From Patescibacteria group bacterium (GTDB lineage Bacteria; Patescibacteriota; Patescibacteriia; UBA2591; UBA4787), in contig JAQUSN010000002.1 of the NCBI GenBank assembly GCA_028715115.1, positions 4,944 to 68,943 of the forward strand: a DNA stretch of 64,000 nucleotides. Direction: 5' to 3'. Both the position numbers and the translations under genes were made by a program. The notes beneath the pieces were generated by a model that was given only the letters and a program-made list of their open reading frames with translations, was not told where the DNA came from and did no database searches. Shown piece by piece: positions 1 through 58,861 of the stretch. Each line of letters begins with the position of its first letter. Within the stretch, counting starts at the first letter, position 1.

Positions 1-2
1 GC

Positions 3-620
3 TATCATTTGATTACCAACGACGAATGGATGGCCATTGCTCGAGACGCGGAACAAGTCCAAGCAAACTGGGCTAACAATCAAATCGGCTCGACCGTGGC
101 TTCTGGCGGCGGCTTAAAACGAGGCAATGTCGGCATTACCGATTCAGCCAGCTACAATGGCGCTGATCCGGAAAAGGGCCTAGGCAGAAATTCCAAAGCT
201 ATGTTGACCTTAAGTAACGGTTCAACTATTTGGGATATTTCTGGCAATGTCTACGAACACGTGTCTTTTACGCCGTCTGGCGCTGACGCTACCCACCAAG
301 AATTGGACCAACCAGACGATGACGATGTTTCAGGTTGGAATTACTATGAATTTACCGCTTTGAATAATAACGGGGCCAATACTTTTACTACCGGCTACAC
401 TGACGGCAAGGCGGTTTTTCGTCCCTCTGACGATACTTGGAATTCAAATTATGGTGTGGGCAAGATTTATGCCAACTCAAACTCAGCCGCTGTCACCGCT
501 CGCGTGTTCGTTCGTGGCGGCAACTGGCACAATACGTCCCGTGCCGGAGTCTTCGGCTTGGACTTGCATTGGACCGCGTCGGGTTCGAGCTACGATGTTG
601 GTTTTCGCTGCGCCCGGTAG
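3..620 (+). CDS. DGR target protein 1 (5'-truncated at window start); FGE-sulfatase / C-type-lectin-fold C-terminal domain carrying VR1
   Basis: The reading frame is open to the window edge. Motifs GNVYEHV and C-terminal VRGGNWHNTSRAG...VGFRCAR are typical of the FGE/CLec fold used by DGR variable proteins. The last ~120 nt match TR1 except at TR adenines. Confidence 0.8.
   Translation, partial: YHLITNDEWMAIARDAEQVQANWANNQIGSTVASGGGLKRGNVGITDSASYNGADPEKGLGRNSKAMLTLSNGSTIWDISGNVYEHVSFTPSGADATHQELDQPDDDDVSGWNYYEFTALNNNGANTFTTGYTDGKAVFRPSDDTWNSNYGVGKIYANSNSAAVTARVFVRGGNWHNTSRAGVFGLDLHWTASGSSYDVGFRCAR
497..619 (+). repeat. DGR variable repeat VR1 (cognate of TR1)
   Basis: The 123-nt alignment with 1683-1805 has ~17 mismatches. 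Every one lies at a position where TR1 has A, for example TR AAT/VR CGT and TR AACTTGAAC/VR GGCTTGGAC. The 3' ends are identical (...GTTGGTTTTCGCTGCGCCCGGTA). Confidence 0.9.
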
Positions 621-642
621 TCCCCGTAGATATTTGGTATTT

Positions 643-662
643 GGCCCGCCAGCAGGCGGGTT
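643..662 (+). other. GC-rich hairpin with 4-nt loop 24 nt downstream of VR1 (DGR target-site hairpin candidate)
   Basis: cccgcc AGCA ggcggg gives a 6-8 bp stem with a 4-nt loop. Placement and shape resemble the hairpins described downstream of DGR VRs. Confidence 0.55.
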
Positions 663-720
663 GGAAATTTGGCTTTCCGACTTAATCTTGTCTGTTCCGC
701 TTCATTTGTATAATTTTTAG

Positions 721-1207
721 AAAATTTTAGAAAATAATTACGCTTTTATTGATGGAGCCAATTTACACATGGGTGTAAAAAGTTTAGGTTGGAAATTAGA
801 CCATAGAAGATTTAGAATCTGGTTAACCGAGAAGTACTCTGTCAGCAAAGCATATATTTTTATCGGCTTGATTCCGAAGAACAAAGATCTTTATACTAAT
901 CTGCAAGAAGCCGGCTTCACTCTAATTTTTAAGGAAGTTGTTTATGATGGTGACGGCAAAGGGCAATTGCGATGCCGATTTGGTCTTAAAGACAACCCAA
1001 GAAGCTTATGAAAATTTATTTGATAAAGCTGCTATTGTTTCCAGCGACGGCGATTACGCTGGGTTAGTAAAATTTCTTCAAGATAAAAATAAATTGGCGA
1101 TAGTTCTTTCGCCAAATTTAGAAAATAAATGTTCGATTTTATTAAAAAGGACAAATGCGCGCATCGCTTATCTTAACGATCAAAAATCAATTTTAGAACT
1201 AAAATGA
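721..1207 (+). pseudogene. NYN/LabA-like (PIN-like RNase) domain gene, disrupted by a +1 frameshift in a GGG run (~961-963) and lacking an ATG start
   Basis: Frame 1 encodes AFIDGANL...LGWKLDHRRF...IFKEVVYDGDGK. The continuation GNCDADLVLK...IVSSDGDYAGLVKFLQDKNKLAIVLSP lies in frame 2 (ORFs 769-1011 and 938-1207). The only in-frame start after the upstream stop is ATT. Confidence 0.6.
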
Positions 1208-1326
1208 AAAAGCCCCCGATGGAGACGAGCTCCATAAGGGTCTTCTTCGTGGTGATAATGCTAGTACAATAGATTAGAGATTAAAGTCAAATTAAAATCT
1301 GTGGATAACCTTTAAAATTATTCAAA

Positions 1327-1662
1327 ATGCTTCAAAATCTACCGATTTTTCAAAAAATTTACGATTTAATCCTTTGGCTGCATCCGGTAATTAATAAATT
1401 TCCCAAGTCGCAGCGCTTTATCTTGGGCCAGCAGACGGAAAATACAGCCTTGGAAATTATCAAAAACGTCATTGCCGCCAACGCCGAAAGAAACAAGACG
1501 GCCTATCTTAAACAAGCCAGTATTGATTTAGATAAATTAAGAATTTTAATTCGTTTAAGTAAGGACTTGAAATTTATCAGTCTCAAACAATATAGCTTGG
1601 CCGCGGAGAAAATTAATGAAGTCGGCAAAATGCTCGGCGGTTGGCTGAAGAGCAGTTGTTAA
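1327..1662 (+). CDS. avd: DGR accessory variability determinant Avd (copy 1; four-helix-bundle family)
   Basis: 111 aa, helical, ending ...EVGKMLGGWLKSS. It is paralogous to the 3129-3482 ORF and lies immediately upstream of TR1. Size and position match the Avd / 23S-rRNA-IVS four-helix-bundle family. Confidence 0.75.
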   Translation: MLQNLPIFQKIYDLILWLHPVINKFPKSQRFILGQQTENTALEIIKNVIAANAERNKTAYLKQASIDLDKLRILIRLSKDLKFISLKQYSLAAEKINEVGKMLGGWLKSSC

Positions 1663-1682
1663 TCAAAGGGGCAAAGTCAAAG

Positions 1683-1805
1683 CGCTCACGTGTTCATTCG
1701 TGGCGGCAACTGGAACAATACGTCCAATGCCGGAGTCTTCAACTTGAACTTGAATTGGAACACGTCGAATTCGAACAACAATGTTGGTTTTCGCTGCGCC
1801 CGGTA
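1683..1805 (+). repeat. DGR template repeat TR1 (adenine-rich on + strand)
   Basis: Asn/AAC-rich pseudo-ORF (NWNNTSNAGVFNLNLNWNTSNSNNNVGFRCAR). It matches VR1 with all differences at TR adenines, and sits 20 nt downstream of avd1. Confidence 0.9.
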
Positions 1806-2055
1806 CTCTTTTTTCTGGCCAGAGCAAAATGTCTATGGACATGAGCCAGCGTCAGAAGACTACGGATTTTGTTCCTCTCCTTAGTAGGTCAAAGCAGTGG
1901 CAGCTAGAGGTTTGACCGAACAGGGAAACCAAAAAGCTCGTACCCTTGAGGAATCAAAGTAGTTTTTTTCGAAATCTTTCCTTAAGGCCAATGGGCTTTG
2001 GCTAAAAATAACAGGACTATTTGTGTTGTCTTGTTGTTTTTAGTCTCCGACCTTT

Positions 2056-3105
2056 TTAATCTTTCAACCACCACCAAAATTGATTTTTGAGATATTGGCC
2101 TAATTTGTAAGTATTAGCATGTGACAATACACCGAGATATGATTGGAGCGATTGTTCGAGCGTCTTCTCGCTAATTATACCATTTTTATATTCTTTAATT
2201 CGGCCCCTTAACTTTCGCATTATTCTTTGTTTCGTTTTAGTTTTGATTAGGCGGTAATAGGGTAGGAGTAGGTGGCCTAGAAAATCAATGCCCTGATCAA
2301 ATTTACGAATGATAATTTTCTTCGGATGAATTTTTAAGAATAATTTTTGCTCTAAAAGTTTTTTCATCGCTTTTAATATTTTTCTTAGATATTTTTTATC
2401 ATTAGCCACGACAATAAAATCATCTGTATAGCGCAAATATTTTTTAATTTGTAATTCATGCTTTACAAATTGGTCAAACTCGTTAAGATAGATATTCGCA
2501 AATAATTGAGAGGTCAAATTACCAATCGGGAGGCCTCTCTTTTTAAATAGATCGGATTGATTAGAGCAAAAACTTTCAATAATTTCCTTAATTAACCACA
2601 TTGCCTTGTCGTCTTTTATCTTTCTGCTGACAATTTCTAATAGAGTATCATGATCCACGCTGGCAAAGAATTTACTGATATCGCATTTGAGGATAAAACA
2701 AGGTTTGGTGTGATTAGCACTAGTAGCTCGTAGAATTTTGGTTAGACAATTCACGGCCTTGTGTGCTCCTTTGTTAATTCGACAAGAGAAAGAATGGCCG
2801 ATAAAGGTTGGTTCAAAAATTGGATTCAAAACAGTAAAAACCGCATGATGCAGTACGCGGTCACGAACCAAGGCTTTGTGAATGTGCCGTTGTTTGGGAT
2901 CGGTAATAAAGAAAGATGTGTATGGGCCATGCTTGTAAGCATGGTTTTGTAAGTCCCGGTACAATTGGAAAATATTGGGCTCTAAATTAAATTCAAACTT
3001 CAGGATATCTGATTTTTTCTTTTTATCTTGGCGAAATTCGTCCCAAGCTGAAAACAGATTTTCCAAAGAGATGATCTTTTCAAACAGATGGCTATAGATC
3101 TTCAT
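2056..3105 (-). CDS. DGR reverse transcriptase
   Basis: 349 aa RT with the YTDDF (YxDD) catalytic motif and LPIGNLTSQLFANIYLNEFD. The SQ substitution in motif 4 is the DGR-RT hallmark. Flanked by TRs and avd genes. Confidence 0.9.
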   Translation of the reverse strand: MKIYSHLFEKIISLENLFSAWDEFRQDKKKKSDILKFEFNLEPNIFQLYRDLQNHAYKHGPYTSFFITDPKQRHIHKALVRDRVLHHAVFTVLNPIFEPTFIGHSFSCRINKGAHKAVNCLTKILRATSANHTKPCFILKCDISKFFASVDHDTLLEIVSRKIKDDKAMWLIKEIIESFCSNQSDLFKKRGLPIGNLTSQLFANIYLNEFDQFVKHELQIKKYLRYTDDFIVVANDKKYLRKILKAMKKLLEQKLFLKIHPKKIIIRKFDQGIDFLGHLLLPYYRLIKTKTKQRIMRKLRGRIKEYKNGIISEKTLEQSLQSYLGVLSHANTYKLGQYLKNQFWWWLKD

Positions 3106-3128
3106 TTTAATTTTTAATAAATAAAACT

Positions 3129-3482
3129 ATGCCCAACGAATTCGACGTTCCCATCTTAAAAAACATCTATGATCTCTACAAAATATTCTATGGTTTTCGC
3201 CACGGTGTTTCCAAACAGGATCGCTACACTATTTGGCAAAAATCAGAGAACCTGATTTTAGAGATTATTGAAGCCATTCTTTTGGCTAGCCAGCAGAGCA
3301 AGATTAATAAAGTGCCAACCCTTGAGCGAGCTAGCGCTAAACTTAACTTCTTGCGAGTTTTTATACGCTTGATGAAAGAAGTCAAAATCATTGACCAGAA
3401 AAAGTATCTAACCTTGCAAGAAGCTGTTGATGAAATTGGCCGGATGCTTGGTGGTTGGTTAAAATCTAGTAAAGATTTTTAA
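3129..3482 (+). CDS. avd: DGR accessory variability determinant Avd (copy 2)
   Basis: 117 aa paralog of 1327-1662 with the same C-terminal ...EIGRMLGGWLKSS. Its start lies 23 bp from the divergently oriented RT start. Confidence 0.75.
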   Translation: MPNEFDVPILKNIYDLYKIFYGFRHGVSKQDRYTIWQKSENLILEIIEAILLASQQSKINKVPTLERASAKLNFLRVFIRLMKEVKIIDQKKYLTLQEAVDEIGRMLGGWLKSSKDF

Positions 3483-3492
3483 GACTTCAATC

Positions 3493-3517
3493 AAAGGGCC
3501 CCTTATGGGGGCCCTTT
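3493..3517. terminator. Perfect 10-bp GC-rich hairpin between avd2 (+) and TR2 (-); candidate bidirectional terminator / DGR RNA structural element
   Basis: The stem aaagggcccc pairs with ggggcccttt across loop ttatg. A T-rich run follows on the minus strand. Confidence 0.55.
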
Positions 3518-3535
3518 GGCTTAGACAGAGAAATG

Positions 3536-3654
3536 ACTTCCGGGCCGCGGACAGACCGATGTTGTCGTTGCGGTTGTCATCCCAGTTGTTGTTGACGTTG
3601 AGACCATTCGCATCGAAGTTGCCGACGTTGACGCGGTTACCGTCCGAAGTGAGA
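3536..3654 (-). repeat. DGR template repeat TR2 (adenine-rich on - strand)
   Basis: The plus strand is T-rich (ttgttgttgacgttg...), so the minus strand encodes an Asn-rich stretch (GNRVNVGNFDANGLNVNNNWDDNRNDNIGLSAARK). It matches VR2 and VR3 with differences only at plus-strand T, i.e. minus-strand A. Confidence 0.85.
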
Positions 3655-3985
3655 AAACTGTCTGTTTTCATCCAAATCTTCAGAAGTTGAGGTTTGCCGT
3701 TCCGTTAAGAATCTATATCCTCTTCTTCTTGTTTACCCTGAGTCGTGGGAAGGGTAGTTTATTCGAGAGTACTCCGATTAAATCAGAGATCTCCACTAAA
3801 AACAGACAAGAAGTTCTGCCTCCATCTTTTTTCACGCGCTATCGCAATCCGTAGAAAGGCGATACTCTGGTGAAGTCTCCCGCTTCCGCCGAAGCTTCGA
3901 CAGGTAGGCAAAAGAAGAGACGTTCGGCGAGGTTAAACCTTGATCTAGCCTTCATTAGCCGAACATTATTATAATATATCAATTT

Positions 3986-4046
3986 TAACAAAAAAGAAAG
4001 AGCCTCCACACAGAGCTACCGGTTGTGGTAGATGTAACGGAGGCTC
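3986..4046 (-). terminator. Rho-independent terminator / conserved 3' element downstream of target gene 2
   Basis: gagcctcc...ggaggctc forms an 8-bp outer stem enclosing an inner hairpin (ctacc ggttgt ggtag). On the minus strand a T-run follows. The block is conserved with 5135-5210. Confidence 0.6.
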
Positions 4047-4085
4047 AAGGATTCAAGAAGTGTCTAGGTCTCGATGACTCAAGAC

Positions 4086-4913
4086 TCAGAACTTCCGGGC
4101 CGCGGACAGACCGATGTGGTCGTAGCGGTAGCCATCCCAGTCGTCGACGACGAGACCATTCGCATCGAAGTAGCCGACGTAGACGCGGTAACCGCCCGAA
4201 GTGAGATCGGAGCAGCGGCCATATCTGGTCGGATTGACGTACTGACCGCTCTTCTTGAAGTACAGCATGGCCTTGGTAACTTCGGTCACAGCCGGCGGTA
4301 CCTCATAGTTGGTCGGCAGCATACTCTGTTGGTCAGCGAAGGTCTTGTCTTCGGAATTCGGTACGATCTCGAGGGGCATCAGCCGCCAACGCAACTTGCC
4401 GGTCGTTCTGACGGCGAAACGCTGGTTGCTGTACCAGGCCTCGGAACTGTACTTGTAGAACCTGGGTTGGCCCGGGGCCGGCTGCAACTGCTGCCACTTC
4501 ATGATGGTCAGCGGAGTGCCGTTGATCCGATCGAGCTCGAGGAAGGCGATGTGCGTTTCGCGAATCGTCTTGCCGGGCACGAAGGGGCACGGGCTGTTGA
4601 GCACTGTCTCGTTCCAGGGGAATCGGGCAATCTCTCGGAGCTGCTTCTTGGTGAAGCGTGCTCCGTAAAGCGCGGCCCAATCGTCAGGACCGAAGAAGCG
4701 TTCGTTACCCATCAGCTCACGGACGAGTTCCAGCGAGATCGGACTCTCGACTTCGCCGCTCAGGAAAGCTTCCGCCACCTTGCGGGCATAGTCAGGGTCG
4801 GTTCGCACACGATCCCAGTGGACCTTCGTCACTCCTCGATCTTGGAGTGCCTTGAGGGTCGATCCGATTTCTCCGAACTCCAGAGTCCAGAGACCATTTT
4901 GGTTTGTACCCAT
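4086..4913 (-). CDS. DGR target protein 2 (C-terminal CLec-like VR2); paralog of target 3
   Basis: 275 aa with C-terminus ...YRVYVGYFDANGLVVDDWDGYRYDHIGLSAARKF. The last ~116 nt match TR2 with A-site substitutions. GC-rich gene (~60%). Confidence 0.8.
   Translation of the reverse strand: MGTNQNGLWTLEFGEIGSTLKALQDRGVTKVHWDRVRTDPDYARKVAEAFLSGEVESPISLELVRELMGNERFFGPDDWAALYGARFTKKQLREIARFPWNETVLNSPCPFVPGKTIRETHIAFLELDRINGTPLTIMKWQQLQPAPGQPRFYKYSSEAWYSNQRFAVRTTGKLRWRLMPLEIVPNSEDKTFADQQSMLPTNYEVPPAVTEVTKAMLYFKKSGQYVNPTRYGRCSDLTSGGYRVYVGYFDANGLVVDDWDGYRYDHIGLSAARKF
4091..4206 (-). repeat. DGR variable repeat VR2 (cognate of TR2; one 3-nt deletion relative to TR2)
   Basis: The 3' end (acttccgggccgcggacagaccgatg) is identical to TR2. 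Internal differences are T to C/A/G on the plus strand. One CAA triplet of the TR CAA-repeat is missing. Confidence 0.85.
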
Positions 4914-5134
4914 GGTACTTACCTCCTGTTGTGTTTGTATTCTCTTTGTCCTTTAGAGACTTTAGAGAATTTGACCTAGGCCGTAGGTCGCGGTCTCATC
5001 TTGGAATAAGACGAGCGTTTTAAAAATCAATTATCTTGATGCCCAAAACGCTCGTCTTATTGTCATCCCCTTACTTATTCTGATTATATTTTATCACATT
5101 TTTCCAAAAAAGTCAAGTTCTAGCTTGATCTTTA

Positions 5135-5197
5135 AGATTAAAAGAAAAGAGCCCTCACCACATGACCCGCCAAGTTTGGCGGATGTAGCGAAGGCTC
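5135..5197 (-). terminator. Rho-independent terminator / conserved 3' element downstream of target gene 3
   Basis: gagccctc...gaaggctc forms the outer stem (7 of 8 bp) with an inner hairpin (ccgcc aagttt ggcgg), followed by a T-run on the minus strand. It shares the motif GATGTARCGRAGGCTCAAGGAWTCAA with 4031-4060. Confidence 0.55.
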
Positions 5198-5228
5198 AAG
5201 GAATCAAAAGGCTCGAGTGTTCGAGGTT

Positions 5229-5993
5229 TTAAGCTTCGAACTTCTGGGCCGCGGACAGACCGATGCCGTCGTCGCGGTAGTCATCCCAGTCGTCGCTGAC
5301 GAGGAGACCATCCGCACCGAAGTAGCCGACGTAGACGCGGTTACCGTCCGAAGCGAGATCACTGCAACGAACGTAGACGCTTTCGAACAAGCGCTTGCCG
5401 GTGGCCAGGAAGTACAGCACCATGGTGTAGATCACCGTCTGAGCGGTGGGTGTGTATTCGTTCTCGGCCAGCAGCGCCTGCTGCTCGGAGTAGGTCTTGC
5501 CGATGGAGTTGTCCACCGGTGTCTTCCGAATCAGTTCCCAGCCGACTTTGCCGGGTTGCGAAGCGAACTTCTGGTTGTTGTACCAGTCCTGACCATAGAA
5601 GACTTTGCCCTTGCCGGCAACCAGGCGACGGATCTCGATGATCGAGGTGCCGAGGTTGGCTACCAGCAGGTGGGTGTTCTTGCAGGCTTCGAGTTCACCC
5701 TCGGTGAACGGCACTTCGGCCAGGGCCTTGATGATTTCGGGGCTCGGAGTGAGTCCGAGATGCTTGGCCGCCTCTTCGATGCCGAGCATGTTCGTGCCCA
5801 TGATGGCACGGGCACGTTCCTGCGATGTCGTCGGCGTAAAGCCGCCGGCGGTTGCGAATGTGGCCAGGCGATCGACGAAGGCGGGGTCGGCGTTGATTCG
5901 ATTGACGATCTGATCGGCGTTGTCTCCGAAAGCAACCCGGAGACGCTGTTCCGCGGCATTGAGATCGCCGGCGGGGACTTGTGTCCATTTCAT
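5229..5993 (-). CDS. DGR target protein 3 (C-terminal CLec-like VR3); paralog of target 2
   Basis: 254 aa ending ...GNRVYVGYFGADGLLVSDDWDDYRDDGIGLSAAQKFEA. The last ~119 nt match TR2 with A-site substitutions. GC-rich. Confidence 0.8.
   Translation of the reverse strand: MKWTQVPAGDLNAAEQRLRVAFGDNADQIVNRINADPAFVDRLATFATAGGFTPTTSQERARAIMGTNMLGIEEAAKHLGLTPSPEIIKALAEVPFTEGELEACKNTHLLVANLGTSIIEIRRLVAGKGKVFYGQDWYNNQKFASQPGKVGWELIRKTPVDNSIGKTYSEQQALLAENEYTPTAQTVIYTMVLYFLATGKRLFESVYVRCSDLASDGNRVYVGYFGADGLLVSDDWDDYRDDGIGLSAAQKFEA
5240..5358 (-). repeat. DGR variable repeat VR3 (cognate of TR2)
   Basis: Same length as TR2 (119 nt). Differences sit at plus-strand T positions (ttg to ccg/tcg/ctg/agg etc.), plus a single C/T difference near the 3' (IMH-like) end. 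Confidence 0.85.
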
Positions 5994-6087
5994 GGCAGAC
6001 TCCTTTCTCTGTTGACCCTTTGAGATTATTGCTGGGCGACTAGATGAGGATTTTGGGCTTACGATCCCTGTTTACGACCTGTCTCGG

Positions 6088-6150
6088 GAATGAGGCAAGT
6101 TATCTAAAGACCATTGTTTAATGATTTCCAGATAACTTGTCTCATTTTTT
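6088..6150. repeat. Palindromic repeat copy C of the AAATGAGACA(C)...TGTCTCATTT family
   Basis: gAATGAGgCAAGTTATC - 26 nt - GATAACTTGTCTCATTTT is an inverted repeat of 17 bp with 2 mismatches. Related elements occur at 14807-14858 and 56692-56826. Confidence 0.5.
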
Positions 6151-6283
6151 CTCTTGAATTCCTAATATATTTTGAGTTGTAAAGAACCTCCTTTGATTCT
6201 TATGCATATATTATAGCACAAAATAGGAAAAAGTCAAGAGCAAATTTTTGGCTTAAAATAAGTAGGGTTTGATGATTTTACGG

Positions 6284-7618
6284 TTATTTATTCTCTTCCA
6301 TTACGGTAATCTTTTTATCTTTGTATTTTAATTTGCTTTTTAGATTAGCCAGTAGCTCCCGTTTGTCTGAGATACCGCCTTCTTTTAAGAGATACTTAGC
6401 ATATTCGCGGATATTAACTTCACTTTCTTCAACCAAGGTTGGCGCGGTTTTGGTATTGCTGTCAACGATTTTTCTTAATTTATTAAATCTTTTAATTTCA
6501 TCTTGGAGCTTAACTCTTATCCCCAGTTCATTGATACTTACAATATCTATAATCTTAAACAATTCGTCAATTAATTCCTCTTCCCTAATATATTTATTTT
6601 TACAGTTTCTATCTTTGGCCCTTGAGCAGCCGTAATAAATATAATGAGCCGAGCTGCCATCTTTGAGGGTTTTCCATTTTTCTTCAGCCGATATTCCTGA
6701 CCCGCAATAGCCGCAAGTGAATAGTTTAGTGAAGGCGAACTCCTTGTTTTCTCGGACGATCTGATCTCTTTTTAATTGTGCTTTGGCCTTTTCAAATAAT
6801 TCCTGAGTGATAATTGGCTGATGTTTGCCGGTATACCAGTTGCCGCTGCCTCGGGGATGTTCAAAAGCTCCATAATAGAACGAATTGTCTAGAATGCGAT
6901 AAATCCCGCTTAGGGTTAGCGGCTTATTGCCTCGAGTATAGAAGTTCAGCTCGAATCTTAGCCAGTTGTACAGCTTAATGCCGGAACAATATTCGTAAGC
7001 AACCTTTTCGAACATTTTTTTAATTATTGGAGCCCTAGCCGGATCAACGACGATCTGGCATTTTTTATCCATCAATTTTTGGTTTAGATATCCAAGGGGA
7101 GCTAGTCCGGGCCATAAGCCCATTTCTACCCTAGTGCGCAATCCTCGTTTAACGTTAATACTGCGATTATCATTTTCCAGTTTAGCTTGCGAACCCAATA
7201 TCATTAACAGAAATTTCTCGTTAGGGTTATTGGTAAATTTTTGGCCAAACGTACGAATCTCTATTAAAAGCTTGGCATCCATTAAATCAACTATTTTACC
7301 CAGATCGCCGGCATTTCTTGAAATTCTATCTGGCGCCCAAGTCAAAATAGCGTTATATTTTCCCTGTTTGATTTCTTCGATAATCTCATTGAAGATCGGC
7401 CTCTGTCCTGCTTCTTTGGCTGAATGCGACTCACGCTTCACGGCCGTGACCTCCAAGTTTTCCTTTTCGGCCAATTGAAACATTTCTTTAATCTGGCTAT
7501 CAATCGACAGTACCTGTCTTTCTTCACTTTCAGTGCTTTTTCTAGCATAAAGGCAATATTTAGCCTTAATTACTTGATTAAGTCCTTGATTTTTTGCTAA
7601 GGTTTTTGTTTGTTCCAT
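6284..7618 (-). CDS. Large serine recombinase (resolvase/invertase N-domain + recombinase domain + zinc ribbon)
   Basis: The N-terminus YCLYARKSTESEERQVLSIDSQ carries the catalytic Ser context. A recombinase domain follows, with a Cys cluster CGYCGSG...YYGCS. It is ~60% identical to 48535-49896. Confidence 0.85.
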   Translation of the reverse strand: MEQTKTLAKNQGLNQVIKAKYCLYARKSTESEERQVLSIDSQIKEMFQLAEKENLEVTAVKRESHSAKEAGQRPIFNEIIEEIKQGKYNAILTWAPDRISRNAGDLGKIVDLMDAKLLIEIRTFGQKFTNNPNEKFLLMILGSQAKLENDNRSINVKRGLRTRVEMGLWPGLAPLGYLNQKLMDKKCQIVVDPARAPIIKKMFEKVAYEYCSGIKLYNWLRFELNFYTRGNKPLTLSGIYRILDNSFYYGAFEHPRGSGNWYTGKHQPIITQELFEKAKAQLKRDQIVRENKEFAFTKLFTCGYCGSGISAEEKWKTLKDGSSAHYIYYGCSRAKDRNCKNKYIREEELIDELFKIIDIVSINELGIRVKLQDEIKRFNKLRKIVDSNTKTAPTLVEESEVNIREYAKYLLKEGGISDKRELLANLKSKLKYKDKKITVMEENK

Positions 7619-7923
7619 AGGTTTTTGTCTTATTGGTTACTATGGAAAGGAATGACAAAACTGCTCAAAGAGTCCAGAGCAGAGGAGTAGACAACCTGTC
7701 GGTAACTAAGCTTCACTTTTTACTTTGTTATGTTAAGATATAAGCACAATTAATTTGCCTAAACCCATGGATTTCTGTGGGCATGGCAATAAAAACCGGT
7801 AAAGGATATTAAGCTCGTCGTCAGAGCTCCTTTACCGGTCATATCCTCGAAAGGGGGTATGGGTAGCGCAAGCTATCGCTGGCGGCGAGCTTTGTGTTTT
7901 CCGCCAAATAGTAATTTTATTTT

Positions 7924-8778
7924 ATGAAAAACAAGGTTATTAATTGGCTATTTATTCTCTGTCTTTTTCTAGTTTCTTTATCTTTGACTGGCTGTTCAAG
8001 CCAGACCACTAATTTAATAAACCAGCCAACAAACAATGTTGTTAATCAAACTAATAGTCCGACAGAAGCAGCAAACGAGGTGGTGCAAAACCTTCAAAAC
8101 AATGTTGTCATTAACAATAAAGATAATAGTGTGGTGGATAATAATCAAATCCCCGACTATTATTCTGTCACTAAGGTGGTTGACGGCGATACTTTTAAGG
8201 TCTCAATCAATGGCTCAGAAAAAAGCATTCGTTTGATCGGCCTTGATACGCCAGAAACTGTTGACCCAAGAAAGCCAGTTCAATGTTTTGGAGTTGCGGC
8301 ATCAAATAAGGCCAAAGAGTTATTGTCTAGCAAAAAAGTAAAACTCGAAGCCGATTCATCTCAAGGCGATCTTGATAAATATGGCCGCTTGCTTCGTTAT
8401 GCTTTTTTGGAAGACGGTACCTTCTTTAACAAGTGGATGATCGCTAACGGTTATGGTCATGAATATACGTACAATTTGCCGTATAAATACCAAACAGAGT
8501 TTAAAGAGGCCGAGAGATCAGCCCAAACCAATAAATTGGGCTTATGGGCCGACGGCGCCTGTGATAGTCAAGCCAATACACAATCCCCAGTTCCGGCCAC
8601 ACCAGCAGCTACGGGGCATGTTTTTTACACCTCATCTTACTACACCTCTAAAACCTATTATTGTGATACAGATTTGGCATGGAAAAATCTTAGCCCAAAA
8701 TACCTGAAACAGTTTTCAAGCGAAGTAGAGCTATCAAAGGTTTATCCTACCAAGACTCTTCACGAACCATGCAAATAG
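7924..8778 (+). CDS. Thermonuclease (staphylococcal nuclease-like, SNase) lipoprotein
   Basis: Lipoprotein signal ...LSLTGCSS. SNase motifs DGDTFKV...IRLIGLDTPE...YGRLLRY. Confidence 0.8.
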   Translation: MKNKVINWLFILCLFLVSLSLTGCSSQTTNLINQPTNNVVNQTNSPTEAANEVVQNLQNNVVINNKDNSVVDNNQIPDYYSVTKVVDGDTFKVSINGSEKSIRLIGLDTPETVDPRKPVQCFGVAASNKAKELLSSKKVKLEADSSQGDLDKYGRLLRYAFLEDGTFFNKWMIANGYGHEYTYNLPYKYQTEFKEAERSAQTNKLGLWADGACDSQANTQSPVPATPAATGHVFYTSSYYTSKTYYCDTDLAWKNLSPKYLKQFSSEVELSKVYPTKTLHEPCK

Positions 8779-9984
8779 TTATCCGTTTGTTGAGCTATTA
8801 TTTTTAGGTGGTGGCCATGGCTTACTAATCATGCCTCCCTCCTTATTATAATCTATAAGATATTCTCGTGTTTTCTCCTTGCTCTCCATGAGCTCAAGGA
8901 AATGGTTCCAGTCTTCTACCGTTACCACCTCTCCATTTGGACCGACGCTTTTTGAGCTATAGGGAGCACTGATGCAAAAATCAGGATGAATATTTCTCTT
9001 TTCTCTCTCTTCAGGACTTAAATATTGACCGAAATATTTTTCATAAAGCGCTGGTGGATAAAATTCGCGAGTTCGAGGGCCGGTTACTAGTAAATATTCC
9101 TGTAGCCAAATTAATTCATCCGAGCAACTGCTTTTTATTCTTTCAATATCTTCGGGTTTGAATTTCTCCGGCCAAAGGTTTCGATCATTATCATCCAAGA
9201 GGGGATAAATGCAGCAGGCAGCATTGGCAATCCGATTCTGAACAATTTCCCTATAAAGCTTCATAATCAATGATGAATTGTCTAATAGATTGCCCAATAC
9301 GACAATGTTGGTTGATTTATCGCCGGCCGGCATAATCTCATTTTTAAACCATTCGCACATCCTTTTGCCTTCTTTGTAATTTTTCGCGGATTGCCTGTCT
9401 TCCAAATCGTCACAAATAATCAGGTCGGGTCGATGCTGTCCGAATTTTATTCCCCTGATATTTTGCCGTAATCCGGCAGCCATAATCATGGCTCCGTATT
9501 TTTTTAGCAAAATATGGTTTGGCCCCCAATCTTCATGATCTTGACGGAAGCCGCCGAAGTCATTATTTAATAGTTCATTGCTTTCCAGTTCGTATTTTAT
9601 ATTTTCCAGATGAAGCTTGGCTTGTTTTTTGTGCTGACTTAGAATCAGCACAAACTTTTTTTGCGGTTTGCCGATGATTGACCAAATAATGTTCGAAAGA
9701 TTCATGATGGTGCTTTTGCCTGAACCGCGAAAAGCGATTATGTTAACCAATCGATATGAGGGATCTTCTGTGATAGTCAGCATCTGTTTGTGGAAAATAG
9801 CCAAAGGATAGCTTAAATGATCAGCCAAGTAAATTTTTGAAAACCAATAGTGACTTTGCTTGGCAAGTTCTTGTCGGAATCGGCGGCTTGTTTTTATCTG
9901 TTCAAAAATGGTCCCAATCGGCTGGGTCTCGTTCCTTCTTGGCACCAGCTCCGTCTGTTTTTGGCGGGATTCCTGATTTGTCAT
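8779..9984 (-). CDS. Phage terminase large subunit (TerL)-like ATPase/nuclease
   Basis: Walker A AFRGSGKST and Walker B LIICDDLED, with C-terminal acidic nuclease-like motifs. It is overlapped upstream by a TerS-like ORF. Confidence 0.75.
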   Translation of the reverse strand: MTNQESRQKQTELVPRRNETQPIGTIFEQIKTSRRFRQELAKQSHYWFSKIYLADHLSYPLAIFHKQMLTITEDPSYRLVNIIAFRGSGKSTIMNLSNIIWSIIGKPQKKFVLILSQHKKQAKLHLENIKYELESNELLNNDFGGFRQDHEDWGPNHILLKKYGAMIMAAGLRQNIRGIKFGQHRPDLIICDDLEDRQSAKNYKEGKRMCEWFKNEIMPAGDKSTNIVVLGNLLDNSSLIMKLYREIVQNRIANAACCIYPLLDDNDRNLWPEKFKPEDIERIKSSCSDELIWLQEYLLVTGPRTREFYPPALYEKYFGQYLSPEEREKRNIHPDFCISAPYSSKSVGPNGEVVTVEDWNHFLELMESKEKTREYLIDYNKEGGMISKPWPPPKNNSSTNG

Positions 9985-10354
9985 ATTCCTCTTTTGCCAC
10001 TTCCGTGGCTATTTTTAACAATTTAATTTGCTCCGGCTTTAATTCTTCATAATACGCTTCTTTTACTGTGTGCAGTTTCTCGGCATATTGCGAATGGTGA
10101 TTCTTAAGCCAATAAATAATGGCCGTGATATTTCCTTTTTTTATCAAGCTGAGCAACTGACTTTCAGCCATATCGTTGATTAGTGACGATCCATCAGAAA
10201 TGGCATCATCGGCTAATCGGGCAAAGGCTTTATCTTCCTTGCGCCAACGATAATAGCTGCTTCTGTTGAGCCCGACCTTTTCACAGGCAAACTGAACTAT
10301 GGGGACCCTCTTTAGTTGCTCAAGCAGATTTCTTTTTATTTCTTTGGTCTTCAT
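9902..10354 (-). CDS. Phage terminase small subunit-like / HTH DNA-binding protein
   Basis: 150 aa with an N-terminal HTH-like segment (FACEKVGLNRSSYYRWRKED). Position immediately upstream of and overlapping TerL. Confidence 0.45.
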   Translation of the reverse strand: MKTKEIKRNLLEQLKRVPIVQFACEKVGLNRSSYYRWRKEDKAFARLADDAISDGSSLINDMAESQLLSLIKKGNITAIIYWLKNHHSQYAEKLHTVKEAYYEELKPEQIKLLKIATEVAKEEYDKSGIPPKTDGAGAKKERDPADWDHF

Positions 10355-11751
10355 AAAACCTTGTGCGCTTTAACTCCGGTTAGCTTTTCCCATCGGTTCC
10401 GAATAACCTCTGCATAGACGGGCGACTTCTCCATTAGATAGCAGCGACGTTTCATCTTCTCGGCAGCGATCAGTGTTGATCCGCTGCCGCCAAACGGCTC
10501 AATAATTAAGTCATTTCTCTTGGTTAAAACCTTGAGATAGGGGATAAGAACTTCAAGCGGTTTGGTTCCGAAGATAATCCCTTGGCCTGAGCTTTTCTCG
10601 TCGGCGGCCGTATATTCGATATAATCGGTGGGGCAATATTTCTTGCCGGCTTCGTAGCTTTCCCAATGCGGTTTGCCGGAAGTGGCGTAAAGAGCGTTTT
10701 CATATTCCTCTTGCAGTAATCCTTCTTCGGGCCCCAAATTCAAATCAACTTTCCCCTGGGTTCCCACGGCGGCAATATCTGTCTTATTGAAGAATTTATA
10801 TTTAGCTGCAAAGCCCTGGCATCTGTTTGGCACATGCCAAGTAATCGTATTTCTGTATTTCCAGTGTTTCTCTAATTCCAACCAAATAGTTTTAAGATTC
10901 TTGGGATTTTCAAAGACAATAATTGAAAAGTCGGACTTTTGAATCTTGGCAACATTAGCCATCCATTTTTCGGTAAAGTCCGGCGGCAATTCATCTGTTT
11001 CCAGATATTTGCGATCTCGCTTTAAACCAAATCCCTCGATTGCTTCGCCGTGCTTCTTTTTGCCTTTTAAATAATCTAAGAGGTAAGGTGGGTCAGTGAA
11101 ACACATATCTGCACTTTCATTGCCCATTAGCCTCAAGACGTCATTTTCAATAGTTGAATCGCCGCACATTAAGCGGTGATTACCTAATTGCCAAACGTCG
11201 CCCCTTTGAATCTCAATTTGAGAAATGTTTAATTTATCCAATTCTTTCTTTAGATCAAATATTTCTGGGCTTTCGTCAATGCCAAAGATGTTATCCATCT
11301 CTTCCGAAGAGAATCCAACGTCGCCCAGCATCTTTTCGCCAAAATCAGCCAAAATGTTCCAATCAAACTCACCGGTGTTTTTATTGAGGCGAAGATTGAT
11401 TTCTTTCTCAAGCTCTAGGCCTGGGATATCAACCCAAACAATGGGCACGGTGGTAAAGCCCAATTCTTTGACAATCTTTAACCGAAAATTCCCGCCTAAC
11501 ACCACCCCTTTGCGGTTTAACGCTGAATTAACAATTAAAGGATCAATTAGTCCGAATTTAGCAATTGATTCTTTTAGATTTTTGCTTGTTTCATCTGACC
11601 AGACTCGTGGATTATATTCACACGGTTTTAGTTGATCAATTGAAACGTACTCGACCTTTAGAATTGACTTCGCGACAGAAGTTTCCATAGGTATTAAATT
11701 AATGATTAATAAATTAAATAAACAAAAGCGACCCAAAAAAGAATTCATCAA
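10351..11751 (-). CDS. ParB-like nuclease domain fused to DNA methyltransferase (N6-adenine/N4-cytosine, beta class)
   Basis: N-terminal ParB-N-like region, a DPPY motif (MCFTDPPYLLDY) and a C-terminal SAM motif I (IIEPFGGSGST). This is the typical phage ParB-MTase architecture. Confidence 0.8.
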   Translation of the reverse strand: MMNSFLGRFCLFNLLIINLIPMETSVAKSILKVEYVSIDQLKPCEYNPRVWSDETSKNLKESIAKFGLIDPLIVNSALNRKGVVLGGNFRLKIVKELGFTTVPIVWVDIPGLELEKEINLRLNKNTGEFDWNILADFGEKMLGDVGFSSEEMDNIFGIDESPEIFDLKKELDKLNISQIEIQRGDVWQLGNHRLMCGDSTIENDVLRLMGNESADMCFTDPPYLLDYLKGKKKHGEAIEGFGLKRDRKYLETDELPPDFTEKWMANVAKIQKSDFSIIVFENPKNLKTIWLELEKHWKYRNTITWHVPNRCQGFAAKYKFFNKTDIAAVGTQGKVDLNLGPEEGLLQEEYENALYATSGKPHWESYEAGKKYCPTDYIEYTAADEKSSGQGIIFGTKPLEVLIPYLKVLTKRNDLIIEPFGGSGSTLIAAEKMKRRCYLMEKSPVYAEVIRNRWEKLTGVKAHKVL

Positions 11752-11961
11752 AAATTGATGTAACCCTTTTTTGGGCCGCGTTGTACATGTTGGAGATCAA
11801 CCTAGGTTGGTGATTATCTTGATTCGATGGCTAATGTTATCGTAGCCTATCGGCGGAATTACGCGGTCTGTATTAAATTGTTATTTATAGTATAAAACAA
11901 GAATATATTTTGGCAAGAAAAGTTATCCACATATCGTGAACCCTGTGAACATAGTATACAC

Positions 11962-11989
11962 TTGACAGTTTTTAAAATGATGTTATGAT
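11962..11989 (+). promoter_or_regulatory. Sigma70-like promoter (TTGACA - 16 nt - TATGAT) for the repressor gene
   Basis: ttgaca at 11962-11967 and tatgat at 11984-11989, directly upstream of the ATG at 11992. It lies in the divergent region between ParB-MTase and the repressor. Confidence 0.4.
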
Positions 11990-11991
11990 AA

Positions 11992-12645
11992 TTGCATATG
12001 ACTATTCATAAAACACAACTTAAATTATTAGAATTAATGAAAACACACAATCTGAATGGCCTGTCTTTGCGTGATATTGGTGAGTTAATTGGGATAAAGG
12101 ATAAACCCCATATAATTAGGCATCATCTTTTACAATTGAAGAAACGAGGACTCATCTATTGGGATCAATCAAAAAAAGAGATTAGAAAAATATCAAAGGG
12201 AATAGAGAGCGATAGCGGTTTAGTTCCCATTCCCATTCTTGGCGCGGCTAATTGTGGCCCGGCCACTCTTTTGGCTGAACAAAATATTCAAGGATATCTT
12301 AGGATATCAAAAAGATTTTTGCCTCGAGTTACAAAAAATATCTTTGCCATTAGAGCCGTTGGTTCATCTTTGAATAGGGCCGATGTTGATCACAAAGGAA
12401 TGCATATTGATGATGGCGATTATGTTTTGATCGATAGTAGTTATCGAAACCCACAAAACAAAGATTATGTTTTATCTGTTATTGATGATGTTGCCAATAT
12501 TAAGAAGTTTATCAGAGAGAAAAATAAAATAACTTTATTATCTGAATCAACAGAAAATATTCCACCCATCTATATACACCGTGATGATAATTATATGATT
12601 AACGGTAAGGTAATCCAAGTAATTAAGAAACCTAAAATAGATTAA
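11992..12645 (+). CDS. LexA/CI-like repressor (N-terminal winged HTH + S24 peptidase domain)
   Basis: An HTH-like N-terminus (LSLRDIGELIGIKDKPHIIRHHLLQLKKRGLI), then an S24-like AIRAVGSSLNRA (Ser) and a later Lys. The divergent orientation from the phage genes is typical of a CI repressor. Confidence 0.65.
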   Translation: MHMTIHKTQLKLLELMKTHNLNGLSLRDIGELIGIKDKPHIIRHHLLQLKKRGLIYWDQSKKEIRKISKGIESDSGLVPIPILGAANCGPATLLAEQNIQGYLRISKRFLPRVTKNIFAIRAVGSSLNRADVDHKGMHIDDGDYVLIDSSYRNPQNKDYVLSVIDDVANIKKFIREKNKITLLSESTENIPPIYIHRDDNYMINGKVIQVIKKPKID

Positions 12646-57412: not shown

Positions 57413-58123
57413 TTGATTAAAAAATATTTTATGAAAAAAATATTACTAATCATTATTTTATTTATCATTGCCGCAGTAATTTTATTTTTAGTACGATATT
57501 TTTTAATGCCAAAACAACTCCAGCCGGTTTCAAATACAAATCAGTCACTGGCGATAATCAACAATTCCTCTAATCCTGCGCCTTTGCCGAATCATATTCT
57601 AACGATGTCTAATTTTCAGCCGCCCCTTGATAGAGCAGGTGAGCGGGTTACGAAGAAAAACTTTGGTATTTATATTACTCCGCAAACTTCACCGGTCCAG
57701 CCGGAAAGATTTGCTGGCTATCATACTGGCGCTGACTTTGAAATATTTCCCGAAGAAATCAACATCGACGTGCCGGTTAAAGCAATTTGTTCTGGCGATT
57801 TAAAATTAAAAAAATCGGCTAGTGGTTATGGTGGTGTGGCGGTAGAATCTTGTTCTTTAAACGGCCAGTCATTCACAATAATTTATGGGCATTTAAAATT
57901 AGCGAGCATCAGCTCTAAGGTCGGGAATAGTATTAAAAGCGGCGATATAATCGGCGTTTTGGGTGCCGCTTATAGTCCAGAAACCGACGGCGAAAGAAAA
58001 CATTTGCATTTAGGAATTCACCGAGGAACCGCCATTAATATTTTGGGCTATGTTCAAAATAAGGCCGATTTATCCGCCTGGACTGATCCTTGTTTGTATG
58101 TTTGCCCCGCAGTGAAAATTTAA
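57413..58123 (+). CDS. M23 family metallopeptidase (LytM-like)
   Basis: N-terminal TM segment. HTGADFEI (HxxxD) and HLHLGIH (HxH). Confidence 0.8.
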   Translation: MIKKYFMKKILLIIILFIIAAVILFLVRYFLMPKQLQPVSNTNQSLAIINNSSNPAPLPNHILTMSNFQPPLDRAGERVTKKNFGIYITPQTSPVQPERFAGYHTGADFEIFPEEINIDVPVKAICSGDLKLKKSASGYGGVAVESCSLNGQSFTIIYGHLKLASISSKVGNSIKSGDIIGVLGAAYSPETDGERKHLHLGIHRGTAINILGYVQNKADLSAWTDPCLYVCPAVKI

Positions 58124-58235: not shown

Positions 58236-58245
58236 GGGGGGGGGG
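58236..58245 (+). repeat. Homopolymeric G10 tract immediately upstream of a TTGCCA -35-like hexamer and the ECF sigma gene
   Basis: acttcGGGGGGGGGGttgccataattaaat lies ~38 nt upstream of the ATG at 58283. Such a run is unusual in a ~35% GC background. Confidence 0.6.
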
Positions 58246-58282: not shown

Positions 58283-58861
58283 ATGATAGGCCAAGATATA
58301 AATTTAGTGCGGCAATATCTTAATGGCGATGAACAATCGCTAGAGATTTTGATTAAAAAATACCTTAAACAGATTTATGGTTTTGTCTATCGTTATACAA
58401 ATAGCGCTTCAGAGACAGAAGACATAACACAGGAGGTCTTTTTGCGGATGTGGCGAAATATTAAAAAATTTGATCAAAAGAAAAATTTTAAAACCTGGCT
58501 ATTTGCCATTGCTAAAAACGCAGCTATTGATCATTTCCGAAAATACCGCCTGGCAACAGGTGAAAGAAAAGCGGTGCCTTTTTCGAACTTTGAGAATGAA
58601 GACGGCAGCAATTTAATCTTTGATACTTTAGCTGACCTTGGCCCCACGGCTCACGAAATTTTCGAAAGAAAGAATTTAGTCCAAATTATTTCTTTAGCTG
58701 TGGAAAAACTCTCCGAAAAATACCAAACCGTCCTTTCTCTTTATTATCACAAACAATTAAATTTCCGGGAAATTGCCGAGCAACTTAATCAATCTATTAA
58801 TACGGTGAAAAGTAATCACCGCCGAGCTATTATTGCTTTAAAAAATATCCTATTAAAATAA
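58283..58861 (+). CDS. RNA polymerase ECF-type sigma-70 factor
   Basis: Sigma region 2 (ITQEVFLRMWRNIKKFD...FKTWLFAIAKNAAIDHFRK) and region 4 HTH (LNFREIAEQLNQSINTVKSNHRRA). Confidence 0.85.
   Translation: MIGQDINLVRQYLNGDEQSLEILIKKYLKQIYGFVYRYTNSASETEDITQEVFLRMWRNIKKFDQKKNFKTWLFAIAKNAAIDHFRKYRLATGERKAVPFSNFENEDGSNLIFDTLADLGPTAHEIFERKNLVQIISLAVEKLSEKYQTVLSLYYHKQLNFREIAEQLNQSINTVKSNHRRAIIALKNILLK

Follow-up and report, generated by a model that had tools for sequence, protein, structure and literature searches.

Two distinct DGRs, each with its own reverse transcriptase, probably lie tail to tail in a Patescibacteria genome

Can a single DGR reverse transcriptase (RT) serve two templates? The question was raised by a 64-kb stretch of Patescibacteria DNA (the window, 64,000 nt, all of which was analyzed), near the left end of which one RT gene, RT_A, lies between two avd genes and two template repeats (TRs). 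According to the original prediction, this single RT must serve both templates with two Avd paralogues. The inventory of parts was correct: the RT, two avd genes, two unrelated TRs, and three variable repeats (VRs) are all where they had been placed, or nearly so, and the two Avd-plus-TR modules on opposite strands, converging on RT_A and with three targets among them, are genuine DGR parts. The conclusion that there is only one RT for both modules did not hold. A second DGR RT gene, RT_B, is located directly upstream of target 1, 843 nt to the left of the window (window coordinates -1934 to -843), where it forms an operon with that target in four near-identical assemblies (L001, L002, L003, and L007). 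These are consensus assemblies that are 99.7-99.8% identical to the window; several of the compared assemblies probably share one study site and are not fully independent. We infer the presence and frame of RT_B in the window's own contig from these assemblies. The idea of one enzyme with two templates arose because the cut of the window excludes RT_B, which lies just beyond the left edge. The 64-kb window contains no further RT, avd, or VR. We therefore have high confidence that the locus consists of two complete, phylogenetically distinct DGRs, arranged tail to tail, in a prophage-like region of a Patescibacteria (CPR) genome. Both adjoining elements, DGR-A and DGR-B, are of known kinds.

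The gene order of DGR-B on the plus strand is RT_B (off the window), target 1 with VR1, a broken NYN gene, avd1, TR1, and a spacer RNA. Its features inside the window are the following.

1-620, plus strand: 3' part of target 1 (ORF 9-620; the full gene, of 488 aa, starts at window coordinate -846)
497-622, plus strand: VR1, variable repeat at the 3' end of target 1 (87% identical to TR1)
644-661, plus strand: G+C-rich hairpin with a 7-bp stem and a 4-nt loop, 23 nt past the target 1 stop codon (DNA fold)
769-1207, plus strand: disrupted NYN-domain gene between target 1 and avd1 (ORFs 769-1011 and 938-1207, in different frames)
1327-1662, plus strand: avd1, accessory protein of DGR-B, of the RT_B-clade type (bAvd E=7e-28; pI 9.8)
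1683-1808, plus strand: TR1, template repeat of DGR-B (30 adenines, largely in AAC/AAT codons)
1813-1965, plus strand: conserved spacer RNA element that follows TR1 and is of the RT_B-clade type (nhmmer E=1.6e-11)

RT_B is 363 aa long, has the motifs LPIGNLTSQ and YMDD, and shares 35% identity with RT_A; its stop codon and the start of target 1 overlap by 4 nt. Where the pieces were detected, the usual order in RT_B-clade loci is VR, avd, TR, RT, all on the same strand, and every avd found in these loci scores best against Avd1. DGR-B is the classical target-avd-TR-RT cassette in rearranged order, RT_B having been shifted to a place before the target as an operon. Target 1 had been described as truncated, but it is cut only by the edge of the window. 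At its N terminus, the full protein has a type IV pilin methylation motif (N_methyl, E=2.5e-5), and it ends in GFRCAR, with a C-terminal FGE-sulfatase match that was below threshold (E=0.0011, 19.2 bits versus a cut-off of 23.3). The NYN match (E=5.5e-7) was obtained with the second ORF (938-1207) only. TR1 and VR1 mismatch at 17 positions: in 16 cases the TR base is an adenine at the first or second position of an AAC/AAT codon, and the remaining mismatch affects the final base of the VR stop codon. The spacer RNA element was found with an nhmmer profile built from 12 RT_B-clade loci, the window being left out, and this profile had no match in any RT_A-clade locus. The element is directly 5' of the RT gene in most relatives, and one hairpin in the TR1 spacer shows compensatory changes.

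DGR-A is read from the minus strand in the order target 3, target 2, TR2, inverted avd2, RT_A, and has the following features.

2056-3105, minus strand: RT_A, reverse transcriptase of DGR-A (RVT_1 E=3e-23; LPIGNLTSQ and YTDD motifs)
3129-3482, plus strand: avd2, accessory protein of DGR-A (bAvd E=5e-19; divergent from RT_A, with a 23-nt gap)
3492-3518, minus strand: stem-loop, 11-bp G+C, just 3' of TR2 on the sense strand of the TR (fold z-score -3.7)
3536-3660, minus strand (sense): TR2, template repeat of DGR-A, identical in all assemblies
4068-4085, minus strand: hairpin with a 4-nt loop directly 3' of the target 2 stop codon (fold)
4086-4913, minus strand: target 2, 275 aa (VR2 at about 4088-4209; 34% identical to target 3)
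5116-5088, minus strand: promoter-like site of target 2 (10/12 matches)
5212-5225, minus strand: hairpin with a 4-nt loop directly 3' of the target 3 stop codon (fold)
5229-5993, minus strand: target 3, 254 aa (VR3 at 5240-5364)

Among solved structures, RT_A best matched a 328-aa RT (PDB entries 8ub7-8ube; E=1.4e-44), which we take to be bRT of the Bordetella phage DGR. Matches to other RT structures were weaker: the best group II intron RT reached E=4e-26, a chain deposited under the name "retron-type RT" reached 4e-25, and an authentic retron RT (Ec83) scored only 5.5e-4. This ranking, the LPIGNLTSQ and YTDD motifs, and the adenine-biased TR/VR pairs present at the canonical position in 55 of 80 related loci confirm that RT_A is of the DGR type and is not a group II intron or retron RT. 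The 80 RT_A relatives are 46-66% identical to it, and most are in MAGs titled as Patescibacteria or CPR lineages. In 76 of these loci a divergent avd abuts the RT start, and 75 of the 76 score best against Avd2 (Avd1 and Avd2 are 40% identical and both basic, Avd2 having a pI of 9.5). In the 55 loci with a TR/VR pair, the TR is just past the 3' end of avd and in the same sense, and the VR is upstream. Thus, RT_A with divergent avd2, TR2, and targets 2 and 3 is the standard module of the RT_A clade.

Apart from 3 nt deleted from an (AAC)3 run, TR2 differs from VR2 at adenines only, and it differs from VR3 at 15 positions, 14 of which are TR adenines; the remaining one is a G>A change in the invariant 3' end. 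Along with the 16 of 17 in TR1/VR1, these results agree with the claim that the mismatches are on TR adenines. All three VRs end at the stop codon of their target, their ends are adenine free and G+C rich (IMH-like), and 4-nt-loop hairpins follow 0-23 nt past each stop codon; these ends and hairpins are putative target-site elements. The fold energies of the hairpins at VR1 and VR2 are unexceptional (z = -1.0 and -1.5), and a terminator-like scan match at 640-665 overlaps the hairpin after target 1, which is a candidate for either a DGR target-recognition hairpin or a terminator. That the targets have a CLec fold was upheld for target 3, the structure model of which (pLDDT 89) matches FGE/EgtB, TvpA, Mtd, TaqVP, and C-type lectins, and for target 2 by its 34% paralogy; the case is weakest for target 1, with its subthreshold match.

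Over window positions 1-9449 (9.4 kb), differences between assemblies were confined to VR2 and VR3. VR2 of the window differs from that of four other assemblies by 17 substitutions, all at TR2 adenines, plus one codon deletion; VR3 differs between assemblies by 12 substitutions, also all at TR2 adenines, plus one codon deletion. Given the adenine fraction of TR2 (0.26), the chance that 17 of 17 between-strain changes would be on TR2 adenines is ~1e-10; the variation between assemblies in VR2 and in VR3 represents only one change event each. VR1 was identical in all five assemblies covering it. By this comparison, the predicted hypervariability at TR adenines is present in VR2 and VR3 (29 substitutions) and absent from VR1, which is invariant. 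DGR-A is visibly active in nature, rewriting two target genes. One AAC codon was lost repeatedly, which suggests that the template slips while cDNA is being synthesized. We propose that the TR2 RNA with its 3' stem-loop would be bound by RT_A-Avd2, which would copy it into adenine-mutagenized cDNA, and that this cDNA would replace VR2 or VR3.

DGR-B, in contrast to the active DGR-A, would currently be silent, either reversibly or in early decay, because an (AG)n run puts RT_B out of frame in most assemblies. The run is (AG)10, out of frame, in L001, L003, L007, and the Logan contig of SRR22315507 (L172), and identical split RT_B proteins are listed in one further MAG record; in L002 it is (AG)11, in frame. 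The two alleles are found within 3.5 kb that have no other difference. Such repeats are concentrated in these loci: of 42 long simple repeats, 34 are inside an RT gene or next to one, in a portion that makes up 10.8% of the sequence (P=6.5e-26), an over-representation of about eight-fold. Several relatives have long in-frame repeats at the same loop position, (AG)9 in L091 and (AG)17 in L009, L117, and L131, and other RTs are frameshifted in the same loop at G11 or (AG)14. An in-ORF repeat with frame-switching length alleles in otherwise identical genomes is the mark of a contingency gene, and RT_B has it.

We tentatively suggest, at a little less than an even chance, that Patescibacteria DGRs are under repeat-mediated phase variation, with populations mixing diversifying and frozen subpopulations. 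(AG)n or poly-G runs in tolerated RT loops would switch the mutagenic machinery on and off; another switch site would lie within the 5' end of the divergent avd, shortly before the RT start. The RT_B repeat may act as such a switch; most members of this lineage would then carry the off state, (AG)10, and a minority the on state, (AG)11. Our literature search found no report tying DGRs to repeat-based phase variation.

Alternatively, DGR-B could simply be decaying, with the (AG)10 frameshift an inactivating step toward gene loss and VR1 frozen. The out-of-frame RT_B allele in most assemblies, the disrupted NYN gene within the cassette, the invariance of VR1, and the frameshifts at repeats in the RT genes of L010, L142, and L153 are all compatible with decay. 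However, (AG)10 and (AG)11 alleles coexist in otherwise near-identical genomes, and avd1, TR1, the spacer RNA, and target 1 are all intact. In addition, random decay is not expected to retain in-frame repeats in several relatives or to enrich repeats about eight-fold at RT genes. Decay is a less favored explanation, and we consider it unlikely.

From gene order, clade co-occurrence, and RNA-element homology, each TR probably pairs with its own RT and Avd. The 3' elements are clade specific: TR1 is accompanied by the RT_B-clade spacer RNA, and TR2 is accompanied by the RT_A-clade hairpin. The post-TR2 hairpin is present, with compensatory sequence changes, in 27 RT_A-clade loci, and its profile matches the window only at 3457-3540 on the minus strand (E=6e-5). 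The stem-loop at 3492-3518 is a candidate Avd-binding element of the template RNA. A stem-loop just after the TR occurs in 207 of 278 Avd-containing DGRs, and in Bordetella phage DGR structures the RNA that flanks the template sets its placement on bRT-Avd and restricts mutagenesis to the cognate template (10.1101/2023.10.23.563531).

The original idea can be restated to accommodate RT_B: RT_A alone would act in trans on both template RNAs, each with its own Avd, and on all three targets, RT_B being a relic. Consistent with this, RT_B is frameshifted in at least four assemblies, co-transcription of TR and RT genes is not required (PMC5758913), and L058 and L010 hold more avd or TR copies than RTs. 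VR1 also still differs from TR1 at adenines only, but past RT_B activity accounts equally well for these differences. Several results make the single-RT explanation very improbable: the RNA element that accompanies TR1 is the RT_B-clade spacer and not the RT_A-clade hairpin, Avd1 is of the RT_B-clade type, an in-frame RT_B allele exists, and an Avd1-type avd plus TR past the 3' end of the RT is absent from all 80 RT_A-clade loci. Furthermore, VR1 was unchanged in every covering assembly while VR2 and VR3 changed. This invariance is a weak sign that RT_A cannot use TR1, because the sequences are few and VR2 and VR3 underwent one change event each. The residual idea that RT_A stands in when RT_B is off has no support, because VR1 is constant where VR2 and VR3 vary.

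That the arrangement stems from collapsed repeats, or from a chimeric contig in which two DGRs were joined, is almost inconceivable: DGR repeats and hypervariable regions are frequent causes of breaks and confusion in metagenome assembly, and the contigs of several relatives stop right after the RT, but the order and sequence over at least 9.4 kb recur in four NCBI MAG assemblies, short Logan contigs of up to 7.3 kb give partial confirmation, and TR1 and TR2 are unrelated, so mutual collapse is impossible.

The two elements resemble the DGR of Bordetella phage BPP-1 (mtd-VR, avd, TR, brt) in their components: an RT, an Avd, a TR, and a target of C-type-lectin fold whose 3' end carries a VR. 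They also share with it adenine-specific substitutions, a G+C-rich invariant VR 3' end followed by a short 4-nt-loop hairpin, and a structured RNA after the TR, and most of the wider RT_B clade retains its VR-avd-TR-RT order. Unlike in BPP-1, the RT of DGR-B precedes the target instead of following the TR, the avd of DGR-A is inverted between TR and RT, and two different cassettes abut, in a Patescibacteria genome or prophage and not in a Bordetella phage. CPR/Patescibacteria DGRs were reportedly first described by Paul et al. in 2017. Those of clade 2 (Roux et al. 2021, PMC8144416), to which RT_A and RT_B are assigned by host and architecture only, come from the same host group and likewise have small targets with a C-terminal VR and without a recognizable Pfam domain. 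In the DGR literature examined, we found no description of the inverted-avd layout, the G+C-rich targets, or the repeat runs. The DGR of Stenotrophomonas sp. SKA14, with two TRs and six VRs (PMC6642488), is similar in having more than one TR at the locus and several targets, but here each TR comes with a separate RT and Avd, the two sets belong to different clades, and the elements are two, side by side. With the simple-sequence-repeat contingency loci of Neisseria, Haemophilus, and Campylobacter, RT_B shares an in-gene dinucleotide or homopolymer run whose length alleles set the frame; unlike in those loci, the switched gene would be a mutagenic RT (or avd), in uncultivated Patescibacteria.

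The one-RT, one-template logic of DGRs is thus apparently not challenged by this locus, as each template would have its own cognate enzyme. DGR-A provides a natural example of activity, one DGR rewriting two paralogous targets, that could be seen by plain assembly comparison. Two sets of RT, Avd, and template RNA located 1 kb apart are an ideal pair for studying how DGR ribonucleoproteins discriminate between templates. The concentration of hypermutable repeats in the RT and avd genes of these DGRs is a new lead: if the repeats act as switches, targeted hypermutation would be regulated by a second, stochastic mutation system.

The original prediction described a single reverse transcriptase (RT_A) serving two Avd-plus-template modules on opposite strands, with three targets. 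The parts that it named, an RT, two avd genes and two unrelated families of template repeats (TRs) and variable repeats (VRs), were all recovered by ORF listing, Pfam searches and repeat finding. The genes in the window are as follows.

Positions 1 to 620, plus strand: target 1 (3' part)
Positions 1327-1662, plus strand: avd1, bAvd by ORF listing and Pfam
Positions 2056-3105, minus strand: RT_A, an RVT_1 reverse transcriptase by ORF listing and Pfam, with LPIGNLTSQ and YTDD motifs
Positions 3129-3482, plus strand: avd2, bAvd by ORF listing and Pfam
Positions 4086-4913, minus strand: target 2
Positions 5229-5993, minus strand: target 3

Avd1 and Avd2 are 40% identical. Repeat family 1 pairs 497-622 (VR1) with 1683-1808 (TR1); family 2, which is unrelated to it, pairs 3536-3660 (TR2) with 4088-4212 (VR2) and 5240-5364 (VR3). 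The rest of the 64-kb window holds no further RT, avd, or VR. The expectation that TR/VR mismatches would be confined to TR adenines was borne out on re-alignment almost without exception. Sixteen of the 17 TR1/VR1 mismatches fall on TR adenines, at positions 1 and 2 of AAC or AAT codons, and the remaining one lies in the VR stop codon, at its third base. TR2, read in its minus-strand sense, differs from VR3 at 14 adenines and by one G>A change in the invariant 3' end, and from VR2 at adenines only, apart from a 3-nt deletion within an (AAC)3 run. A short hairpin with a 4-nt loop follows each VR. Plausible promoters were found for targets 2 and 3, and the promoter and terminator scans gave nothing convincing for TR1 or TR2. 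An Rfam scan of the DGR region returned zero family matches, and Avd2 matched no solved structure by sequence. Between target 1 and avd1 lies a disrupted NYN-domain gene (769-1207, plus strand), present as two overlapping ORFs in different frames and identical across all assemblies.

The single RT did not survive comparison with other assemblies. An exact-protein look-up of RT_A found the window locus in four NCBI MAG assemblies and several Logan contigs, 99.7 to 100% identical to the window. In those assemblies target 1 is complete (488 amino acids [aa], with a type IV pilin methylation motif at its N terminus), and directly upstream, overlapping its start by 4 nt, is a second RT gene, RT_B. 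RT_B (363 aa; motifs LPIGNLTSQ and YMDD) shares 35% identity with RT_A. Its gene runs from -1934 to -843 in window coordinates (negative numbers lie to the left of window base 1) and so could not have been seen when the original prediction was made. The fourth MAG has the same arrangement of RT_B and target 1 on a 298-kb contig. We infer the state of RT_B in the window's own genome from these near-identical assemblies. A protein look-up of the window-specific form of target 2 gave one 4.2-kb Logan contig as its sole other carrier. The window's species was absent from a GTDB scan, in which the best match was 66% identical.

To assign the parts to their RTs, we compared the window with loci carrying relatives of each RT, annotating RTs, avds, and adenine-biased repeats with our own script. 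The 80 loci with relatives of RT_A (46 to 66% identity) came mostly from MAGs titled as Patescibacteria lineages, with about a dozen records titled otherwise. An avd gene on the opposite strand abuts the RT start in 76 of the 80, and 75 of these 76 score best against Avd2. In 55 of the 80, a TR in the RT sense lies just past the avd 3' end, with a VR about 400 to 1500 nt further upstream; an Avd1-type gene plus a TR past the RT 3' end occurs in none of the 80. By these counts, the window's order of target 3, target 2, TR2, inverted avd2, and RT_A is the standard, self-contained layout of the RT_A clade. Among 80 loci with relatives of RT_B, all the avds found score best against Avd1. The usual order in that clade is the classical one of VR, avd, TR, and RT on one strand. 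The closest relatives of RT_B (58 to 76% identity; four loci) resemble the window lineage in that the RT leads and neither an avd nor a TR precedes it.

The RNA flanking the TRs divides in the same way. A profile of the 140-nt region after the TR, built for nhmmer from 12 RT_B-clade loci with the window excluded, matches the window at 1813-1965 on the plus strand (E = 1.6e-11) and matches no RT_A-clade locus. One hairpin of this spacer covaries, with compensatory changes, and is the sole covarying hairpin given by RNAalifold. In the RT_A clade, the TR is followed by a covarying, G+C-rich stem-loop, and a profile of this element matches the window only at 3457-3540 on the minus strand, directly after TR2. 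Thus, the RNA handle on each TR in the window is the one that belongs to its RT/Avd type. According to a cryo-EM study of the Bordetella phage element, TR-flanking RNA grips Avd and RT, positions the template, and keeps mutagenesis from templates other than the cognate one; the same study finds post-TR stem-loops to be widespread, CPR bacteria included (bioRxiv 10.1101/2023.10.23.563531). From these sequence comparisons, the best-supported reading is that RT_A would work with Avd2 and TR2 (DGR-A, diversifying targets 2 and 3) and RT_B with Avd1 and TR1 (DGR-B, diversifying target 1).

The original prediction called for read mapping to detect variability in the VRs; we used assembly comparison instead, and the outcome differed between the two elements. 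When window positions 1-9449 were aligned with four other assemblies, all differences were confined to VR2 (4118-4195) or VR3 (5267-5354). The window's VR2 differs from that of the other assemblies at 17 positions, and the VR3 of one assembly (L002) differs from the rest at 12. Without exception, these 29 substitutions sit where TR2 has an adenine; as adenines make up 0.26 of TR2, 17 of 17 changes would hit them by chance with a probability of about 1e-10. TR2 is invariant across assemblies. DGR-A is thus at work in nature. VR1 is identical in every assembly that covers it. The two changed alleles (window VR2 at about 4142; L002 VR3 at the equivalent of window 5295-5297) have each lost one codon, and both losses map to a single (AAC)3 stretch of the template. 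The shared site suggests that the RT slips repeatedly where AAC codons lie in tandem, during cDNA synthesis, so that homing could alter the length as well as the sequence of a VR.

The stillness of VR1 is consistent with the state of RT_B. Within RT_B, at -1515 to -1494 (L002, 14600-14621; L007, another assembly of the locus, 6493-6512), is an (AG)n run that encodes ...LEREREREDK... in a surface loop aligned to a gap in RT_A. L002 has (AG)11 and an intact ORF of 363 aa. The (AG)10 allele, which splits RT_B into 147 and 207 aa, is present in three other assemblies (L001, L003, and L007) and in a Logan contig from SRR22315507; the split proteins are listed at NCBI in three MAGs, one of them on a contig of about 308 kb. 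Assemblies with (AG)10 and (AG)11 show no other difference in 3.5 kb. Metagenome consensus can misreport repeat length, but the identical (AG)10 in four assemblies speaks against error here. Thus, DGR-B is probably off in most of these populations. The frameshift may be a reversible switch or an early stage of decay, and consensus assemblies fit either. The MAG with in-frame RT_B also contains a third DGR RT (L009; GCA_028686935.1, JAQUBC010000008.1), which shares 72% identity with RT_B and has an (AG)17 run that is likewise in frame; this gene is the neighbor of leuS at the end of a contig.

Long simple repeats of this sort are concentrated in or near the RT genes of related loci. We scanned 1.7 Mb of DGR loci (L009 to L170, window excluded), counting as long any run of 7 or more dinucleotide units or of 9 or more G/C. 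This gave 42 long runs, 34 of them inside an RT gene ± 60 nt, which makes up 10.8% of the sequence (binomial P = 6.5e-26); several of the remaining runs were at -63 nt or adjoined another RT. The runs in or just 5' of RT genes were (AG)7-19 and G9-12, in both clades, and had three hot spots: in the RT_B clade, a loop that precedes RT motif 3, (AG)9-17 or G9-11; in the RT_A clade, a loop that precedes the GLPIGNLTSQ motif, (AG)8-19; and, again in the RT_A clade, poly-G 13 to 27 nt upstream of the RT start codon (ATG), which is poly-C on the other strand. In the one locus read through (L084), the divergent avd contains the poly-C within its 5' end. In three relatives (L010, L142, and L153) the RT is frameshifted exactly at the repeat. 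These runs are candidates for phase-variable control of DGRs; in the literature searched, we found no paper tying DGRs to repeat-based phase variation. The window itself has a single long simple repeat, a G10 homopolymer at 58236-58245, between ORFs at 57413-58123 and 58283-58861.

A search with target 3 gave 452 homologues of about 255 aa (E ≤ 1e-5); among the matches listed, all source names are Patescibacteria-group lineages and no protein carries a Pfam domain. Target 1 ends in GFRCAR and shows no more than a sub-threshold match to FGE-sulfatase. Targets 2 and 3 (4086-4913 and 5229-5993) have a G+C content of 58 to 63%, versus 31 to 43% in nearby flanking genes. Recent horizontal gain as a lineage-specific cause can be dismissed, because the excess is common across RT_A-clade loci: in target genes of this type (L011 to L090) the median G+C excess over the locus is +0.10, and the non-VR part shows it too. 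Nor is adenine depletion the cause, as the coding strand has more A than T.

The DGR neighborhood is prophage-like (window 6284-12645; L007 1-6053, to the left of the window). The genes on the right of the DGRs encode a serine recombinase, SNase, the two terminase subunits (small and large), a ParB-methyltransferase, and an S24 repressor; those on the left encode an amidase endolysin and a protein of 1062 aa. Outside this region the window is chromosomal and carries six tRNAs and a tmRNA. A full-length match to LOOT RNA (Rfam RF03000; 93 bits versus a gathering score of 46) lies at 7756-7877 on the plus strand, between the serine recombinase and SNase genes.

Several VRs per TR, parts on different strands, and genes nested among DGR parts are known (PMC5758913), as are a Stenotrophomonas DGR with two TRs (PMC6642488) and CPR-restricted DGRs with domain-less targets (PMC8144416); the literature also yields multi-DGR genomes. 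Among our loci, L084 (9564-19021) likewise has two modules, each a complete RT plus avd, 8 kb apart. Two others are partial duplicates: L058 (3379-6842) has one RT, two avds (the extra one partial), and two TRs matching one VR, and in L010 (690-8020) the one RT is frameshifted, there are two avd genes, and a single TR serves two VRs. Given these precedents, we reject a new composite architecture; the window adds one more case of known kinds, with two different DGRs next to each other. The parts and the activity of the proposed composite are real, but its single RT is not, since RT_B adjoins target 1 in near-identical assemblies. The locus very likely consists of two convergent cognate cassettes, one active and the other switched off by a repeat frameshift. 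Its value rests mainly on the clean natural evidence of DGR activity, on the side-by-side specificity pair, and on the lead offered by the repeats.
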